Shown here: piece by piece, positions 3,037 to 8,456 of the stretch
Layout of the letters: every line of letters begins with the position of its first letter
How positions within the stretch are numbered: position 1 is the first letter of the stretch
DNA from: a virus
DNA: 10,094 bases
Strand: one strand, 5' to 3'
UHGV virus genome: UHGV-0117807
The notes under the pieces: generated by a model
Databases searched by the model: none
What the model was told of the DNA's origin: nothing
The model's input: the letters and a program-made list of their open reading frames with translations, nothing else
Program-made: the position numbers and the translations under genes

Positions 3037-3249
3037 CTACAACTCATCACGAATCTGTGAGAGTGTGCTGATCGCCTGGTAATGACCGCGACGCTGCTCT
3101 TCTGTTTTGAACGCACGCATATCGTCTTTTATCGATGCGATTGCCTTATTCAGAACTTCCACTTGCGCTTCTTTAATCGCCTGTTTGCGTGGCTTCTGAC
3201 GCTTCTTAGGAAGGTCTCTTAAACACGCCGGAATGTATGTCTGAGTCAT
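3037..3249 (-). CDS. Small basic 70-aa protein, first gene downstream of the putative PL; possible N-like antiterminator or other early regulator
   Basis: Strong ribosome-binding site (AAGAGGA, then 6 nt, then ATG; rc of 3247-3249). The N-terminus is Lys/Arg-rich (LPKKRQKPRKQAIKEAQ). It occupies the lambda N position (PL, ~300-nt leader, gene). No sequence identity to lambda or P22 N is claimed. Confidence 0.5.
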   Translation of the reverse strand: MTQTYIPACLRDLPKKRQKPRKQAIKEAQVEVLNKAIASIKDDMRAFKTEEQRRGHYQAISTLSQIRDEL

Positions 3250-3550: not shown

Positions 3551-3613
3551 ACAATAGCTAAAGCGATTATTTCAGTCAATCGCCAAAACGATATTTACCA
3601 TCGATAAAGCGAT
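3551..3613 (-). promoter_or_regulatory. Putative leftward early promoter and operators (PL/OL-like)
   Basis: On the minus strand there is a TTGACT -35 (rc of 3574-3579), a 17-nt spacer and a TATTGT -10 (rc of 3551-3556). Three copies of the 14-bp palindrome ATCG-N6-CGAT are present: 3579-3592 and 3600-3613 are perfect, 3554-3567 matches 7 of 8. The same palindrome occurs in the cI-cro intergenic region. Confidence 0.45.
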
Positions 3614-3714
3614 AATGCATTGAATGTTAAAGCGATATTTTTTTTAAACGAAGTAGGAAAAAGTGATGTTGAAGGCGGTTTGATGGGAGAGAATTGAAGG
3701 TAGAAGATGGAGGT

Positions 3715-3739
3715 ATAAAAAAACCGGCTTTCGCCGGTT
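3715..3739 (-). terminator. Rho-independent terminator ending the cI-lipoprotein (lysogenic) transcript
   Basis: The plus strand reads aaaaaaaAACCGGCtttcGCCGGTT (3715-3739). On the minus strand this is a 7-bp stem (AACCGGC/GCCGGTT), a 4-nt loop and TTTTTTT, lying 7 nt after the lipoprotein stop (rc of 3746-3748). Confidence 0.6.
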
Positions 3740-3745
3740 GGTTAA

Positions 3746-4222
3746 TCAGTTGCAGTTAACTTTCCTGCCTACGAAGATCAAGTCTCCGTACTCGTCATTG
3801 GTATTCTTAAACCTAAGAACCTGTCCGTTGCGGATAAAGGCCCAGTAGAGTTGCTTACCTGTGTATCCGCCATAAGAATTTTTTGCGTTCACGAAAACAC
3901 ACGTCGAGTAACCGTAAACAAAGTTCCTGTTCTCAACCATAACCTCTTTGCGGAGTGGAGAGAAGTCGCTGAATTTCGCGGAATCAGGATCCTTTAAGGC
4001 ATCCTTGATTGTTGCCTGAACCAGCTCTTTATAGTTCTTTGGCTTTTCACCGACATCGGCTGTTTCAAGATTGATATTTCTCACCTTCTCGGCAAACTCG
4101 GCATCATGTTTTTTAGCCTCAGCCATCTTCTGATCGTAATCAGAAGCAATACGGGCATAAGGTGGTTGCGCACACGCGCTGAGCAATGCAGAGGCGATAA
4201 CTACAGCTGCTAATTTTTTCAT
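3746..4222 (-). CDS. Predicted secreted lipoprotein (158 aa), co-transcribed downstream of cI; candidate lysogenic-conversion or superinfection-exclusion factor
   Basis: The N-terminus MKKLAAVVIASALLSACAQ is a classic signal peptide with lipobox L-S-A-C. The mature part is hydrophilic. The start lies only 35 nt after the cI stop on the same strand, and a terminator follows. Confidence 0.75.
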   Translation of the reverse strand: MKKLAAVVIASALLSACAQPPYARIASDYDQKMAEAKKHDAEFAEKVRNINLETADVGEKPKNYKELVQATIKDALKDPDSAKFSDFSPLRKEVMVENRNFVYGYSTCVFVNAKNSYGGYTGKQLYWAFIRNGQVLRFKNTNDEYGDLIFVGRKVNCN

Positions 4223-4257
4223 CTTCCCATCCCAGAGTAATTACTGTGTAAATTTTG

Positions 4258-4950
4258 TTATGCGAATCTTTTATAATCGACTGACTGTCTCAGCAGTACT
4301 TTAGCCATGACGTAGAACGCGTCCTCATCTTCAGGCTCGACGTACCATTTTTCGTAAATCGGGTTATCGGATATTACTGCCAGCCTGTCTCGCTGCATCT
4401 GCAGGCGCTTAACGTGCAGTGTCTTCCCAAATACGAAGACGTATACACCGTCACCATCAAAGTGCGTAACACCGGTATCAACGAAGATCTGATCACCAGG
4501 TGAAATAGTGCCGTCCATGCTGTCACCATTAACTGTGATCACTTTGACATGCGCAGCTGGACGATTGCCGAACAAGGCTCGCGCCTGCTCAGTCGTGTAT
4601 TCAATGGCTCGGATAGTTTCAATGAAATCGCTGGTGACAATGCTGCCCGGTCCAGCGCTGGCTTTAACGTCGAGTACATCCACGCGGTAAATCCCATTCA
4701 GTGACGGCTTAACCTGGTATAGCGCAGACGGTTCTCTTGCGCTACTGGAAGCCATTTCCCCTTCACCAGTAGACAGCCACTCCGGCCGCACACCAAGAAC
4801 AGAGGCAATCTCAACAGTTTTACGGGAGCCGTTCGCTTCCTTGAGTAGCTTATTGACGCTGGACTGAGCCATGCCGACATCTTTGGCTAATCGGCCCTGT
4901 GTATATCCAGCATATTTCATTGCCTGCGCCAGGCGCTCCGAGAATCCCAT
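4258..4950 (-). CDS. cI: cI-type prophage repressor (N-terminal HTH, C-terminal S24/LexA-like autopeptidase)
   Basis: ORF-track ORF. HTH region YTQGRLAKDVGMAQSSVNKL. Probable Ala-Gly cleavage site in KASAGPG. S24 catalytic Ser in VNGDSMDG and Lys in HVKRL. ATG at 4950 is preferred (AGAGGTGA SD with 5-nt spacing); the in-frame GTG at 4956 is an alternative start. Confidence 0.9.
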   Translation of the reverse strand: MGFSERLAQAMKYAGYTQGRLAKDVGMAQSSVNKLLKEANGSRKTVEIASVLGVRPEWLSTGEGEMASSSAREPSALYQVKPSLNGIYRVDVLDVKASAGPGSIVTSDFIETIRAIEYTTEQARALFGNRPAAHVKVITVNGDSMDGTISPGDQIFVDTGVTHFDGDGVYVFVFGKTLHVKRLQMQRDRLAVISDNPIYEKWYVEPEDEDAFYVMAKVLLRQSVDYKRFA

Positions 4951-4981
4951 ATTCACCTCTGTTAATGACTCCTTTAACTCT

Positions 4982-5063
4982 ATCGCTCAAGCAATTATTT
5001 AGCAAAAAATCGCCTATGCGATTGACATTCGCTAAAGTGATAACCATAATCGCTTTAAACTGA
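4982..5063. promoter_or_regulatory. OR-like operator/promoter region between divergent cI and cro: rightward PR, operator palindromes, and an unlocated PRM
   Basis: PR has a TTGACA -35 (5022-5027), a 17-nt spacer and a CATAAT -10 (5045-5050). A perfect palindrome AATCGCctatGCGATT lies at 5008-5023, with weaker ATCG-N6-CGAT-like sites at 4982-4995 and 5028-5041 and an AATCGC half-site at 5048-5053. A leftward -10 candidate AATAAT (rc of 4994-4999) has no good -35, as expected for an activator-dependent PRM. Confidence 0.6.
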
Positions 5064-5077
5064 TAGCTGAGGTGATT

Positions 5078-5329
5078 ATGAAGACCCCAACAGTAGAGAA
5101 GAACTCCGCAGTAGAGAAAGCGATCGCCATCGCTGGCAGCCAGAAAGAACTGGCAAAACGTTGCGGTAAAGCCCAGTCCACTATCTGCGACTGGCTTAAC
5201 GGAAAGAAACGCATCTCCCCGGTTCACGTTCCTGAGCTGGTGAAAGCGGTTGGTGGTGAAATCCAGGCTCATGAATTCCGCCCGGACCTGCCTTCCATCT
5301 TTCCACACCCTGACAACCATGCCGCCTAA
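5078..5329 (+). CDS. Cro-like small HTH regulator (YdaS/Cro family)
   Basis: ORF-track ORF (GTG 5072 alternative; ATG 5078 preferred, with GAGGTGA SD). HTH region GSQKELAKRCGKAQSTICDWLNG. It is the first gene transcribed from PR, divergent from cI. The C-terminal H-x-x-RPD motif resembles my recollection of YdaS-type proteins. Confidence 0.8.
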   Translation: MKTPTVEKNSAVEKAIAIAGSQKELAKRCGKAQSTICDWLNGKKRISPVHVPELVKAVGGEIQAHEFRPDLPSIFPHPDNHAA

Positions 5330-5359
5330 CCGGCGGCCCTAACAACGAAAGGGAAAGCA

Positions 5360-5905
5360 ATGCATTCACTTGCGTATCAACAAGGTAACAAATTTTCGCC
5401 AACGGCGATGATTTACCAGAATCGCCGGGAACCTGATTCCGCGGCGTTAAACATCGATGGGGTCCGCGCAGCTGTTCGCGCCTGGGCAGCTGATTGCCGC
5501 AGCCGTGAATTTGTCGCTGCTCTGATTGTTGAAGAGTGGCGGGCAACTGGCGGCACTGGTCTGGATATCCCGACTGACTCGCACCGCCAGATGCAGAAGG
5601 TATTTCGCTGGATCGATGGCGACACCGAATACGCCGCCAACAACATTCGCCAGCTGGCCCCGGCAATCATGTCGGTCCTGCCGCTGGAGTACCGAAACCG
5701 TCTGGCGCCGCAGAACGACACGATGTCGCTGATCGCCTCTGCGATGAAAGAGTGTGCCGAGGCTAAACAGGCCGTGCTGCTGGACGCACCAGAGCATCAG
5801 AAGCTGAAAGAGGTAAGCGAGGGTATAGCGTCGCTGTTCCGCCTCATGCCGGAGCAAGTAGGCCCGTTGATGACGATGGTGACGTCGATGCTGGGGGTTA
5901 TGTGA
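5360..5905 (+). CDS. CII-like regulator, YdaT family (181 aa)
   Basis: ORF-track ORF immediately after cro. The segments EEWRATGGTGLDIP and IRQLAPAIMSVLPLEYRNRL resemble my recollection of E. coli Rac YdaT (EEYLRQGGGELPLVP...IQKLIPAILAILPRELRHRL). Recall-based. Confidence 0.7.
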   Translation: MHSLAYQQGNKFSPTAMIYQNRREPDSAALNIDGVRAAVRAWAADCRSREFVAALIVEEWRATGGTGLDIPTDSHRQMQKVFRWIDGDTEYAANNIRQLAPAIMSVLPLEYRNRLAPQNDTMSLIASAMKECAEAKQAVLLDAPEHQKLKEVSEGIASLFRLMPEQVGPLMTMVTSMLGVM

Positions 5906-5994: not shown

Positions 5995-6141
5995 ATGGCA
6001 AAAAATCCACGCTATTACCATACCGCTGTACATAAAAACATAGCCCGCGACCGCTTCATCCGCTCGGTTAACCCGATTGTGGCAGAGAAGATGCGCGCCA
6101 TCCTGGAAGAATTGAAACGTAAGGAGAGTGGCCGTGGGTAA
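5995..6141 (+). CDS. Small basic protein (48 aa from ATG 5995; the ORF-track frame extends to GTG 5902)
   Basis: Strong SD AGGAGG (5985-5990) 4 nt before ATG 5995. Product MAKNPRYYHTAVHKNIARDRFIRSVNPIVAEKMRAILEELKRKESGRG. Its stop overlaps the start of the O-like gene. Function unknown. Confidence 0.4.
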   Translation: MAKNPRYYHTAVHKNIARDRFIRSVNPIVAEKMRAILEELKRKESGRG

Positions 6142-7033
6142 CGTATCCAATTTAGCCGAAGCCAGAGAGGCCAGAAGGCTCCAGAAACCGCGCACGAATG
6201 ACGGTAAGGGGTTTGCCTTGCTGCACCGTAAAATTATGGATGTGCCGTTCTACAAGGACGCTGAGGCGGCTCATTTATGGGTTCACCTGCTCCTGCGCGC
6301 TAATCACGAACAGACACTGGTATCGACTGATGTTGGCGATGTGATCTGCGAGCGCGGCGAGTTCATCACCGGGCGTAACACGCTGGCAATGGAAACGGGT
6401 TTGACCGCTGATCGCGTTAAATCACTGCTCCGTAAATTCCAGAATCTGGGCATGATCACCACCAAATCGAACAACCGTTTTACTGTTCTAAAAGTGGTCA
6501 AATATGACGAATATCAGTCAAATTTTTGTCCAGCCGATGTCCAGCCAGTGTCCAGCGCAAACGCAGTAATAACAATGCCTGTGGAGGATGTGTGTCCAGC
6601 CGATGTCCAGCCGGTGTCCACAGATAACAATATATTAAATAACTTACTACCTAAAGGTAGTAAGTATGTCGCAAATGACCAGAACCCCGCTGAAGAGAAA
6701 AAGTCCCGTTTGTCATGCGATGAAGTATGGCAATGCCTGAAAGACGAACTGCCTGAAGCCCGGGGATGGAGATGCCTCACTGATGAGCGACGCAATCTGA
6801 TCCGCACCTTCTGGGGTAAGGCTAACAAGATTGCCCGCAACCTGGACGGCAAGCCGATGGATATGGACGGTTTCAGAAGCTATCTGCGATATATCGCTCA
6901 AAACTGCCGCTGGATGCTTGAAGACCGACCAGACCAGAAATCCGGGAAAACCTGGCGCCGCATGAAATTCGATAAGTTCCTGACCGAAAAGCTCTACATC
7001 GAAGTGCGCGAGGGGGATCGTGATGACCGCTGA
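6134..7033 (+). CDS. Replication initiator, lambda O / P22 gp18-like (N-terminal DNA-binding domain, linker carrying the origin, C-terminal helicase-recruitment domain)
   Basis: ORF-track ORF (GTG 6128; GTG 6134 has better spacing from the AAGGAG SD). The N-terminal domain is a winged-HTH-like initiator fold. The central linker is encoded by the iteron repeats (CPADVQPVSS...CPADVQPVST). Its stop overlaps the helicase start. Confidence 0.8.
   Translation: MGNVSNLAEAREARRLQKPRTNDGKGFALLHRKIMDVPFYKDAEAAHLWVHLLLRANHEQTLVSTDVGDVICERGEFITGRNTLAMETGLTADRVKSLLRKFQNLGMITTKSNNRFTVLKVVKYDEYQSNFCPADVQPVSSANAVITMPVEDVCPADVQPVSTDNNILNNLLPKGSKYVANDQNPAEEKKSRLSCDEVWQCLKDELPEARGWRCLTDERRNLIRTFWGKANKIARNLDGKPMDMDGFRSYLRYIAQNCRWMLEDRPDQKSGKTWRRMKFDKFLTEKLYIEVREGDRDDR
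6527..6664. repeat. Putative phage replication origin inside the O-like gene: two 31-bp direct repeats, each with three ~11-bp iterons, then an AT-rich segment with a perfect 9-bp inverted repeat
   Basis: TGTCCAGCCGATGTCCAGCCAGTGTCCAGCGC at 6527-6558 and TGTCCAGCCGATGTCCAGCCGGTGTCCACAG at 6593-6623, with the GTCCAGC core recurring at 11-bp phasing. An AT-rich stretch (6624-6642) follows. CTTACTACC (6643-6651), taaa, GGTAGTAAG (6656-6664) form a perfect inverted repeat. Confidence 0.6.
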
Positions 7034-8456
7034 ATTCATGGCTGTGCCACAAAACCTCGAAGCGGAGCAGAGCGTTATCGGTGGCCTGCTGCTGGATGAT
7101 GACAACAGCGAGCGAGTCCAGAAGGTTCTGGCGATGCTCAAGCCTGAGTCGTTCTACAGCCGACCTCACCAGCTGATCTTTGCCGAGATGCGCCAGATGT
7201 TCCGCGACAACAAGCCAGTCGATGGTCTGACATTGTTCGACGCGCTCGAAGGCAAAGGGCTCGCGGAGCAGGTAGGTGGCTTTGCTTACCTGGCGGAGAT
7301 CGCCAAGAACACTCCCAGCGCTGCAAACATCGTGGCATACGCTGCGTCAGTCCGGGAAGCCGCAATGGAGCGCTACGGTATCAGCCGCCTGACCGAAGCT
7401 ACTGAGCTGCTGTATTCCCGCAATGGCATGAGCGCCACGCAGAAGTACGAGGCTATTCAGGGTATTTTCACCCAGCTCGCAGACCATTCAAAAACCGGTA
7501 GTCGCCGTGGGTTGCGGTCGTTCGGCGAGGTTATGGATGACTGGGTGGCAGATCTGGAGAAGCGATTTGACCCTTCAGGCGAACAGCGCGGAATGAGTAC
7601 CGGAATCCCGTCACTCGACCGACTGCTGGCGCCGAAAGGTCTGGTTAAAGGCTCTCTGTTCGTGATTGGCGCAAGGCCAAAGATGGGCAAGACAACCCTA
7701 TACGGGCAGATGGCGATCAACTGCGCGGTTCGTGAGAAAAAGCCAGCGCTGATGTTCAGCCTGGAAATGCCAGGCGACCAGATCCTCGAAAAACTGGTTG
7801 GTCAGAAGTCGGGCATTAACCCGAGCATTTTTTACATGCCCGCCACGGATGATGCCGATGACCAGTACCAGGGCGACTACGACGGCGACTTTAAGAAAGC
7901 GATCGCCACAGCCGGTCGGTTGAGTGAAATCGACATGCTATACATCGACGACACTCCTGGCCTGTCACTGGCGCACATCGTTAGCGAAAGCCGCCGAATC
8001 AAGCGCGAGAAGGGCTGCGTAGGAATGATTCTGGTTGACTACCTGACGCTGATGACCGCCGAAAAAGCCGACCGTAATGACCTGGCCTACGGGATGATCA
8101 CCAAAGGTCTGAAGAATCTCGCAAAAGAGCTTGGCTGCGTCGTCGTGCTGCTGACCCAGCTCAACCGCGAACTGGAGAAGCGAGTGAATAAACGCCCGTT
8201 ACCGAGCGATTCCCGCGACACAGGACAGATTGAGCAGGACTGCGACTACTGGGTTGGCATCCACCGTGAAGGTGCTTTCGATGAGAGCGTGCCACCAGGC
8301 GAAACCGAGCTAATCCTGCGGCTTAACCGCCATGGCAGTACCGGCACGGTTTATTGCAATCAGATCAACGGTGCAATTTACGACACAGACCAGCAGGCCG
8401 CCGCCGCAGAACGCCGCGGGCGTGAGCAGCAGCCGAAAAAGAAAGGGGGATTCTGA
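7023..8456 (+). CDS. DnaB-family replicative DNA helicase (phage-encoded, P22 gp12-like)
   Basis: ORF-track ORF of 478 aa. The N-terminus PQNLEAEQSVIGGLLLDD is the DnaB N-domain signature. Walker A GARPKMGKT; Walker B-like MLYIDD; LLTQLNR motif. GAGGGGG SD upstream; the start overlaps the O-like stop. Confidence 0.9.
   Translation: MTAEFMAVPQNLEAEQSVIGGLLLDDDNSERVQKVLAMLKPESFYSRPHQLIFAEMRQMFRDNKPVDGLTLFDALEGKGLAEQVGGFAYLAEIAKNTPSAANIVAYAASVREAAMERYGISRLTEATELLYSRNGMSATQKYEAIQGIFTQLADHSKTGSRRGLRSFGEVMDDWVADLEKRFDPSGEQRGMSTGIPSLDRLLAPKGLVKGSLFVIGARPKMGKTTLYGQMAINCAVREKKPALMFSLEMPGDQILEKLVGQKSGINPSIFYMPATDDADDQYQGDYDGDFKKAIATAGRLSEIDMLYIDDTPGLSLAHIVSESRRIKREKGCVGMILVDYLTLMTAEKADRNDLAYGMITKGLKNLAKELGCVVVLLTQLNRELEKRVNKRPLPSDSRDTGQIEQDCDYWVGIHREGAFDESVPPGETELILRLNRHGSTGTVYCNQINGAIYDTDQQAAAAERRGREQQPKKKGGF

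Follow-up and report, generated by a model that had tools for sequence, protein, structure and literature searches.

To our knowledge, the envelope proteins made by lysogens that decide which phages can infect a Gram-negative cell are understood for only a handful of examples, namely Cor, Llp, SieA, gp15 and Imm/Sp. In phage lambda, rexA and rexB lie between cI and OL and encode two cytoplasmic/inner-membrane proteins, and lambda Bor is a lysogen-expressed outer-membrane lipoprotein, encoded by a moron, that confers serum resistance. Gene 15 of phage HK97, the founding moron, sits in the chaperone-to-tape-measure slot and encodes a small, envelope-located protein, expressed from the prophage, that blocks DNA entry in a manner dependent on the tail of the incoming phage (PMC3594210). 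Lpp021 of mEp021 and Lpp010 of mEp010 are prophage lipoproteins encoded within structural clusters that were found experimentally to exclude phages in a receptor-matched manner (PMC11893012), and Ltp of S. thermophilus is likewise a prophage lipoprotein reported from experiment to exclude phages (PMC3952083). Here we analysed a 10,094-nucleotide (nt) stretch of the virus genome UHGV-0117807 (the window), which carries a divergent lambdoid immunity region, and in particular a gene for a lipoprotein of 158 amino acids (aa) at positions 3746-4222, directly downstream of a cI-type repressor gene (Table 1). The evidence makes it very probable that this gene is a promoter-less copy of a mobile lipoprotein cassette, that of the Salmonella phage ES18 gp20/phrog_2320 family, which in this lambdoid siphovirus prophage has inserted between the cI gene and OL/PL.

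The lipoprotein matched phrog_2320, a group with no assigned function, over residues 1-158 (7.3e-37) and was 71% identical to ES18 gp20 (YP_224158) over residues 26-158 (8e-61), which by sequence makes it a member of the ES18 gp20/phrog_2320 family. The ES18 gene is bracketed by terminators, and its annotation, dating from 2005, reads "possible moron; function unknown". An earlier, sequence-only reading of the window had recognised no homolog of the mature domain, a claim overturned by a word-indexed search that returned 438 homologs, none of those listed having a precomputed Pfam domain, and by a profile search of 1.84 billion cluster representatives that returned 7,903 clusters at E values up to 1e-3 and 1,818 at E values up to 1e-10; the family size of ~7,900 clusters refers to clusters at 50% identity. 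All of these relatives, ES18 gp20 included, are uncharacterised. In the assembly collection, the exact window protein was indexed in 683 blocks, with a count of 269 contigs. It and 40 cluster mates, from Enterobacter, Escherichia coli and Klebsiella, bore no names other than "hypothetical protein", "putative periplasmic lipoprotein" or "Lipoprotein". The domain spans phages of Pseudomonas, Klebsiella and Salmonella and many phyla. More than 436 family members were found in viral or prophage contigs of IMG/VR, but members turned up in only nine distinct isolated phages (13 of 50,697 records); when the region itself was compared by megablast with the 50,697 phage records, no match was returned.

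Several lines of evidence, namely the hundreds of homologs, the low ratio of nonsynonymous to synonymous substitution (dN/dS) and a confident AlphaFold model, establish that the open reading frame (ORF) is a real gene, and dN/dS together with the confident predicted fold ruled out readings as an artefact or a pseudogene. The dN/dS was 0.04 relative to a copy with 98% identity and 0.07 relative to a copy with 83% identity, and synonymous sites were saturated relative to copies still sharing 65-75% of their amino acids, showing long-term purifying selection on the lipoprotein sequence.

Comparison of the regions upstream of the family members revealed both promoter-bearing and promoter-less forms of the cassette. 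An alignment of many copies not linked to cI showed that they have a conserved upstream region of ~75 nt in common, holding a TTGC-type −35 element and an extended −10 element (TGCTACCAT, TGCTAGGAT or TGCTATCAT) 37-51 nt before the ATG, as well as a palindromic leader (GTAACGAACTGTTAC or TAGGATTAATCCTA) and the Shine-Dalgarno sequence GGGGATAGGGAT. The strict motif TGnTAnnAT was present at −37 to −51 in 21 of the 107 non-cI copies, compared to 0.6% of random 49-nt windows. A strict scan did not find a σ70 promoter for ES18 gp20, and the extended −10 emerged only from comparing many copies. In contrast, the window copy and two other cI-linked copies (L093 and L094) retain only the last ~30 nt of the leader (GTAATTAC...CTGGGATGGGAAG-ATG), with the cI stop codon standing where the −10 element would be. 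In promoter-bearing copies (L095, 1410-1485; L004, L115, L131 and L106, 3931-4006; L001, 5900-5950), a perfect palindrome stands directly after the extended −10, near the transcription start, in the variants GTAACGAACTGTTAC or TAGGATTAATCCTA, or as GATGGT..ACCATC in ES18. This palindrome could be an operator for some regulator or a leader hairpin, and the window holds a collapsed version of it, GTAATTAC.

Since the window copy has lost the cassette promoter, transcription would have to enter from upstream. Scanning revealed neither promoter-like nor terminator-like sites in the spacer between cI and the lipoprotein gene (4223-4257) and no promoter in the 3' end of cI either, and the spacer had no significant secondary structure (z −1.2). 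The elements noted in the sequence-only reading, a 158-aa lipobox protein starting 35 nt after the cI stop and a strong terminator 7 nt past its own stop, are all present: the terminator stem begins 6 nt past the lipoprotein stop (7 nt without the first A-U pair), with a ΔG of −12.3 kcal/mol and a z of −3.57. Equipped with its own ribosome-binding site and a strong terminator but lacking a promoter, the gene would be transcribed with cI in lysogens and be off upon induction. Co-transcription with cI in lysogens appears to be the best reading, with good support, because the gene has no promoter of its own, no terminator intervenes, and cro, cI and the lipoprotein gene move as a fixed cassette; the loss of the promoter is the strongest sequence-level argument.

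The last of these points comes from eight different prophage contexts, in all of which (8/8) cro (83 aa), cI (230 aa) and the lipoprotein gene kept identical spacing while the genes around them were shuffled, cII being of the YdaT or the Phage_CII type, the replication genes of the O/P or the DnaB type and the early-left genes changing as well, suggesting that the trio forms one immunity cassette. One prophage with the same cassette (L179) carries a Phage_CII protein in place of YdaT. In E. coli 730V1, the slot is empty behind a cI of 76.5% nucleotide identity, indicating that the lipoprotein gene is optional cargo. In L093 and L094, the lipoprotein is 83% and 75% identical to that of the window and the adjacent cI 92% and 88% identical, so the lipoprotein has diverged faster, with the changes falling mostly in the signal peptide and the linker.

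The repeats on either side of the cassette are consistent with its location inside the immunity region. Exact copies of the 9-mer ATCGCTTTA number three within 80 bp just past the terminator (3559, 3605 and 3628; − strand), and a degenerate one at 3592 makes a fourth. Spaced 21-25 nt apart, these direct half-site copies flank and overlap the PL-like promoter, and the half-site recurs in inverted orientation in the cI-cro intergenic region, where the pair TAAAGCGAT-N6-ATCACTTTA overlaps a near-consensus rightward PR-like promoter (TTGACA-17-CATAAT, 5022-5050, + strand). We read these repeat clusters as putative OL/PL and OR/PR, an operator assignment made from the repeat pattern alone, which would place the lipoprotein gene between cI and OL. 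The sequence-only reading had likened this position to the rexAB slot, and the comparison holds, the gene lying between cI and the OL/PL-like cluster on the cI strand with no terminator between. The putative operators differ in layout, OL having four direct half-sites and OR one inverted pair, and a terminator-like hairpin within the OR-like region (5023..5008, − strand) is likelier to be a protein-binding palindrome than a terminator.

The mobile and mosaic nature of the cassette raises the question of whether its lipoprotein does anything for the lysogen. A hitch-hiker kept by linkage to the immunity cassette, or a helper of lytic growth that, for example, remodels the envelope for release, would accord with the related prophage that evidently does without the gene and with the many copies in late tail operons, which would be transcribed in lytic growth. 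However, dN/dS values of 0.04-0.07 and saturated synonymous sites point to long-term selection on the protein, the gene recurs independently behind repressors in distant taxa, and cI-linked copies lacking their own promoter would be silent after induction, arguing against a lytic role here. We therefore regard cargo of this kind as very improbable.

Analysis of the N-terminus pointed to an envelope location for the protein. As in a PROSITE PS51257-type rule (a positive n-region, a hydrophobic h-region and [LVI][ASTVI][GAS]C with the Cys at position 15-35), the sequence has K2 and K3, the uncharged h-region VVIASALL and L-S-A-C with Cys17, and this Cys is kept in at least 90% of 73 family members. 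In Enterobacteriaceae, Asp at +2 retains lipoproteins away from the outer membrane (the Lol-avoidance rule). Sorting to the outer membrane is predicted because the +2 residue is Ala, as in 60 of 115 distinct relatives, and Asp is rare, occurring in only two. Thus, the lipoprotein is, with good support from these sequence features, predicted to be lipidated and anchored in the outer membrane with its domain facing the periplasm, and the mature form would be 142 aa, about 16.2 kDa, with a pI of 8.7. A role as a spanin (Rz1-like) was ruled out by the position in the immunity region and by the related prophage's own lysis cassette.

Of the structural comparisons suggested along with the sequence-only reading, prediction gave a confident AlphaFold model (mean pLDDT 89.5, built on 73 sequences) and the Foldseek search of the PDB returned no match below E 0.08. 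In the model, a low-confidence tether (residues 18-27) leads to a linker helix (28-48), missing from shorter relatives, and a compact domain (~52-158) made of a helix (64-75) and then six strands. Fifteen positions are invariant among the 73 sequences, which reach down to 32% identity (L76, D78, P79, S81, G104, C108, N112, A113, K114, N115, G118, G119, Y120, G122 and C157), and the motifs are A-D-x-G-x-x-P-x-N-Y, L-K-D-P-D-S-A-K-F and V-N-A-K-N-S-Y-G-G-Y-x-G; LKDPDSAKF and VNAKNSYGGYTG are invariant motifs of the roll. The conserved Cys108 and Cys157 are probably joined by a disulfide, in keeping with a periplasmic location. The modelled fold resembles a generic NTF2/cystatin/VirB8-like α+β roll at the level of fold class only; matches to NTF2-like, VirB8-like and cystatin-like rolls had low Z scores and 4-17% identity, with no catalytic or inhibitory motifs in common with the lipoprotein. 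Other searches gave little: only unnamed relatives in BFVD structures, nothing below E 0.4 in PDB sequences, only DUF6491 at E 0.079 (below the cut-off) in Pfam, only lipo_EMYY in NCBIfam, scoring 16.7 bits where the cut-off is 100 and covering just the signal peptide, and 0 families at E values up to 0.1 in PADLOC-DB v2.

Distant members showed the domain in other protein architectures, as the C-terminal extracytoplasmic part of a fusion of an ECF (extracytoplasmic function) sigma factor with a transmembrane segment, in a PDZ fusion and in two to three tandem repeats (P0147, P0211, P0122 and P0161). In Actinobacillus pleuropneumoniae (L167, 5019-6477), a homolog with 39% identity lies outside any prophage, between efp and glnS, in an islet consisting of a divergent 128-aa helix-turn-helix (HTH) regulator, a 110-aa ORF and the lipoprotein; the collection indexes this exact protein in 74 blocks (two near-identical contexts were shown among 24 contigs read), and the islet may derive from an immunity region that became domesticated.

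The genomic placement of relatives was examined at 162 related loci, of which IMG/VR supplied 80, species-representative genomes 78 and annotated records the rest, by calling ORFs and classifying the nearest neighbours; the context counts come from a simple greedy ORF caller and from loci recovered by the exact peptides NAKNSYGG and LKDPDSA[KR], and are thus biased to conserved members. At 22 of the 162 loci, the gene was directly 3' of an S24/HTH repressor gene on the same strand. Twelve of these were close relatives of the window, and the other repressor-linked copies were 31-38% identical to the lipoprotein, with repressors ~25% identical to the window cI and gaps of 2-61 nt. The distant repressor-linked copies were found in Pseudomonas (four species), Ralstonia, a Xanthobacteraceae metagenome-assembled genome and others. 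Another 33 copies stood directly upstream of a gene for a 790-1,220-aa protein, with gaps of −44 to 96 nt and, in four cases, the start codon inside the called lipoprotein ORF. The large neighbours tested were tape-measure proteins (TMP_2, TMP_3 and lambda-C types), an identity confirmed by Pfam/PHROG for a subset, and the annotations of ES18 and Klebsiella phage KpF5 show the same placement. About six copies were directly downstream of the tape-measure gene. When 133 nearest neighbours from the 78 species genomes were independently scanned with PHROG, repressors came top (phrog_4, 15 members), with tape-measure families next (phrog_1538, 8; phrog_1107, 7; phrog_339, 6).

Other placements were seen in single phages. 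The copy in phage Fraca lies between tail-tip genes, and in Pseudomonas phage PAJU2 an O-antigen acetylase gene and then an antirepressor gene stand on one side of the copy and the lysis/integrase genes on the other, with a similar arrangement in YMC11/02/R656. The E. coli 23CRST004 prophage with the window's cassette is an ES18-like siphovirus, encoding TipJ, a chaperone of the DUF6246 family and, where a tape-measure protein would be expected, a coiled-coil protein of 932 aa. This prophage ends (L175, 10249-13477) in a tail-spike gene and then an acyltransferase-family gene, a likely O-antigen-modifying conversion module, and its chaperone-to-tape-measure slot holds two other small uncharacterised genes, not the lipoprotein gene. 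Tab of phage JBD26 was ruled out as an occupant of the same slot, being located between terminase genes.

These placements bear on whether the lipoprotein could act, like Cor and Llp, by binding the periplasmic face of an outer-membrane receptor and inactivating it, thereby blocking adsorption and sparing progeny from debris. In no observed placement does the gene adjoin one for receptor binding, and the E. coli prophage encodes a tail spike together with an O-antigen acyltransferase. Phages whose hosts have no receptor in common carry this one conserved domain, and conservation across phyla under purifying selection fits poorly with a receptor-specific plug. ES18, cited as using FhuA as its receptor (PMC3424200), already has a Cor gene after J besides gp20, and the mature domain is unrelated to Cor, Bor and Lpp021. 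A receptor blocker thus seems quite improbable, even though the product is a predicted outer-membrane-sorted lipoprotein made from a prophage, tail-operon copies would also be expressed late, and the mEp021 and mEp010 lipoproteins set a precedent for receptor-matched exclusion (PMC11893012).

As the likeliest single role, we tentatively propose superinfection exclusion that takes place in the periplasm, after adsorption. The lipid-anchored product would present, on a short disordered tether and the linker helix, a disulfide-stapled α+β roll in the periplasm, and this domain would protect the lysogen from other phages after adsorption. Its target would be the envelope-crossing step of siphophage DNA delivery, either the ejected tape-measure or tail-tip proteins or passage through the wall, a mode that would differ from plugging one particular receptor. 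Exclusion is favoured because a link between the gene and lysogeny recurs in phages whose hosts differ widely, because its other favoured home adjoins the tape-measure gene, a slot with a precedent for exclusion at DNA entry, because the family is common in prophages and rare among isolated phages, and because a periplasmic domain tethered to the outer membrane would be well placed to meet ejected siphophage tail proteins.

Several observations weigh against exclusion. A search of the literature for the accessions, the PHROG id and the family found no study, and no experiment or expression report for any member. Known exclusion and defence proteins showed no similarity, PADLOC returning nothing and Cor, Bor and Lpp021 aligning over the signal peptide only. 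The fold is generic, and the purifying selection (dN/dS 0.04-0.07) came with no arms-race signal. Adjacency to the tape-measure gene may perhaps reflect just a permissive insertion site, and a weak promoter inside the 3' end of cI may exist. Finally, because the domain also occurs outside prophages and in ECF-sigma, PDZ and tandem-repeat proteins, it appears to be a general extracytoplasmic module, perhaps for periplasmic binding, that prophages have taken up on a large scale.

The same observations form part of the case for the main rival to exclusion, a host envelope-fitness factor acting in lysogenic conversion and unrelated to phage. Such a factor would bind a conserved envelope component or an incoming agent that acts in the periplasm, such as lysozyme or other muramidases, colicin-type or type VI secretion system toxins or serum factors, and would raise survival of the lysogen as Bor does. 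Conservation of the domain across phyla, with invariant polar motifs and ~7,900 clusters, the strong purifying selection, the non-prophage settings and the extracytoplasmic position in ECF-sigma and PDZ fusions are all consistent with this possibility, as is the NTF2/cystatin-like roll, a common scaffold for ligand binding and inhibition. The likely co-expression with cI would resemble that of other conversion genes, and the PAJU2 copy is in a conversion region beside an O-antigen acetylase gene. However, sequence and structure searches revealed no homology to Bor or to any known inhibitor or immunity family, and a fitness role leaves the recurrent placement beside tape-measure genes unexplained; on balance, we consider it doubtful.

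In sum, a large unannotated family is placed with striking regularity in two slots known for protective cargo. If the lipoprotein is an exclusion factor, clinical Enterobacteriaceae would commonly possess a layer of phage resistance that has gone unrecognised, with a bearing on host range in phage therapy, and the family would define a domain at the Pfam level that is new. As an envelope-fitness factor, the lipoprotein would instead be the product of a widespread lysogenic-conversion gene. A bolder reading makes it the first member to be recognised in an undescribed and very widespread class of lipoproteins that exclude superinfecting phages from within the periplasm, broadly and independently of the receptor; the conserved α+β domain would engage a conserved element of siphophage DNA delivery, such as the ejected tape-measure/tail-tip complex or its passage through peptidoglycan. 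This would explain the recurrent fixation in the repressor operon or beside the tape-measure gene, and we hold it to be unlikely.

Table 1. Positions of the lipoprotein gene and the surrounding immunity-region features in the window.
Feature	Position	Strand	Description
OL/PL-like region (putative)	3551..3636	−	Four direct ATCG(C/T)TTT(A/G) half-sites (3636, 3613, 3592, 3567); leftward promoter TTGACT-17-TATTGT (3579..3551)
Intrinsic terminator	3715..3739	−	Stem AACCGGC-GAAA-GCCGGTT (7 bp), then T7; would close the cI-lipoprotein unit
Lipoprotein gene	3746..4222	−	ATG start, 158 aa, N-terminus MKKLAAVVIASALLSAC; from ORF and translation
Signal peptide and lipobox	4172..4222	−	Residues 1-17, MKKLAAVVIASALLSAC; Cys17 predicted lipidation site; Ala at +2
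cI-lipoprotein spacer	4223..4257	−	35 nt, cI stop to lipoprotein ATG; Shine-Dalgarno GGGA/GGGAAG
cI-type repressor gene	4258..4956	−	HTH and S24 autopeptidase; Pfam Peptidase_S24 (2.6e-18), Phage_CI_repr; phrog_4 (7.7e-59)
cI-cro intergenic region, OR-like (putative)	4957..5071		Inverted half-sites TAAAGCGAT/ATCACTTTA at 5033-5057
cro-like gene	5072..5329	+	YdaS/HTH_3; phrog_35; divergent from cI

A mechanical ORF list puts the start of cI at GTG 4956; ATG 4950, which has the Shine-Dalgarno sequence AGAGG upstream, is the probable true start, agreeing with the 230-aa product in RefSeq and in other assemblies. On the + strand, cro is followed by a cII-like gene (YdaT; phrog_163), both within 5072-5905; by their Pfam names YdaS and YdaT are "toxins", and by PHROGs they are a repressor and a CII-like activator. 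Further along the same strand, an unannotated 301-aa ORF (6128-7033) occupies the position of the replication initiator, and a 478-aa ORF (7020-8456) stands where a near-identical E. coli prophage annotates a DnaB-like helicase. On the − strand, the first ORF after the PL-like promoter (3037-3249) encodes a 70-aa protein with an Arg/Lys-rich stretch, PKKRQKPRKQAIKEAQ (phrog_5305, function unassigned), which, with a leader of ~300 nt ahead of it, may be a candidate N-like antiterminator. Another early-left gene (2311-2979, − strand) encodes a 222-aa protein with a full-length match to Nmad5 (nucleotide modification associated domain 5, 1.2e-30; phrog_1965, function unassigned). Within this early-left region, antisense or adjacent to small ORFs, is a match to the Rfam family isrB (1279-1376, + strand; 38.2 bits against a gathering cut-off of 35), isrB being an Hfq-binding small RNA first described in Salmonella islands.

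Compared with known systems, the lipoprotein is of a kind that causes little surprise, an accessory protein of a prophage encoded in a cargo slot that is already familiar. The family is new, lying outside Cor, Llp, Bor, Rex, the mEp Lpp proteins and the PADLOC systems, with a domain that has no Pfam or NCBIfam model, and its size, its two recurrent slots and the promoter-bearing and promoter-less forms of the cassette go beyond the sequence-only reading. That reading had also compared the protein with Cor, Llp and Bor as exclusion or host-fitness factors. The comparison survives as an analogy only, given that hhalign alignments with Cor, Bor and Lpp021 covered the signal peptide alone, and an exclusion or conversion role stays hypothetical. 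Cor and Llp are specific for FhuA, whereas the lipoprotein domain is conserved across phyla. The Cor proteins (phi80, N15 and ES18 gp32) and T5 Llp are also smaller, at ~80 aa compared to 142 aa for the mature lipoprotein; the alignment with ES18 gp32 spanned 20 columns, and no sequence or fold similarity to T5 Llp was found. ES18 carries its Cor gene downstream of J in addition to gp20, and Cor in general sits downstream of a J-type host-range gene, unlike the window gene behind cI and the ES18 homolog before the tape-measure gene. Bor differs in genome location and is alike in being an outer-membrane lipoprotein moron, as predicted for the window product; it gave no Pfam match, and its alignment covered residues 1-21. 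Lpp021, at 72 aa and encoded beyond J, is unlike the window lipoprotein, and its alignment comprised 16 columns at a probability of 12%. Ltp, a Gram-positive surface lipoprotein, is likened to the window lipoprotein by description only.

The closest positional parallel is lambda rexAB, which, like the window gene, lies between cI and OL/PL on the cI strand and is closed by a terminator. In the window, one small exported lipoprotein stands in place of the two Rex proteins, no RexA or RexB family was found among the Pfam, PHROG and PADLOC matches of the window, and an abortive-infection mechanism is not expected from a periplasmic protein. As a moron in the Juhala/Hendrix sense, the gene has its own terminator, is present or absent between relatives and deviates modestly in base composition (44.9% GC compared to 50.8% for cI), although scans of the spacer and the cI 3' end found no promoter of its own for the window copy. 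HK97 gp15 occupies the same chaperone-to-tape-measure slot as 33 relatives of the lipoprotein; it is a YebO-like inner-membrane protein rather than a lipoprotein, and homology is not expected. ES18 gp20, with the same lipobox, the same motifs and its own terminator, is the direct homolog, but its gene belongs to the tail operon, where it immediately precedes the tape-measure gene, whereas the window copy stands behind cI.

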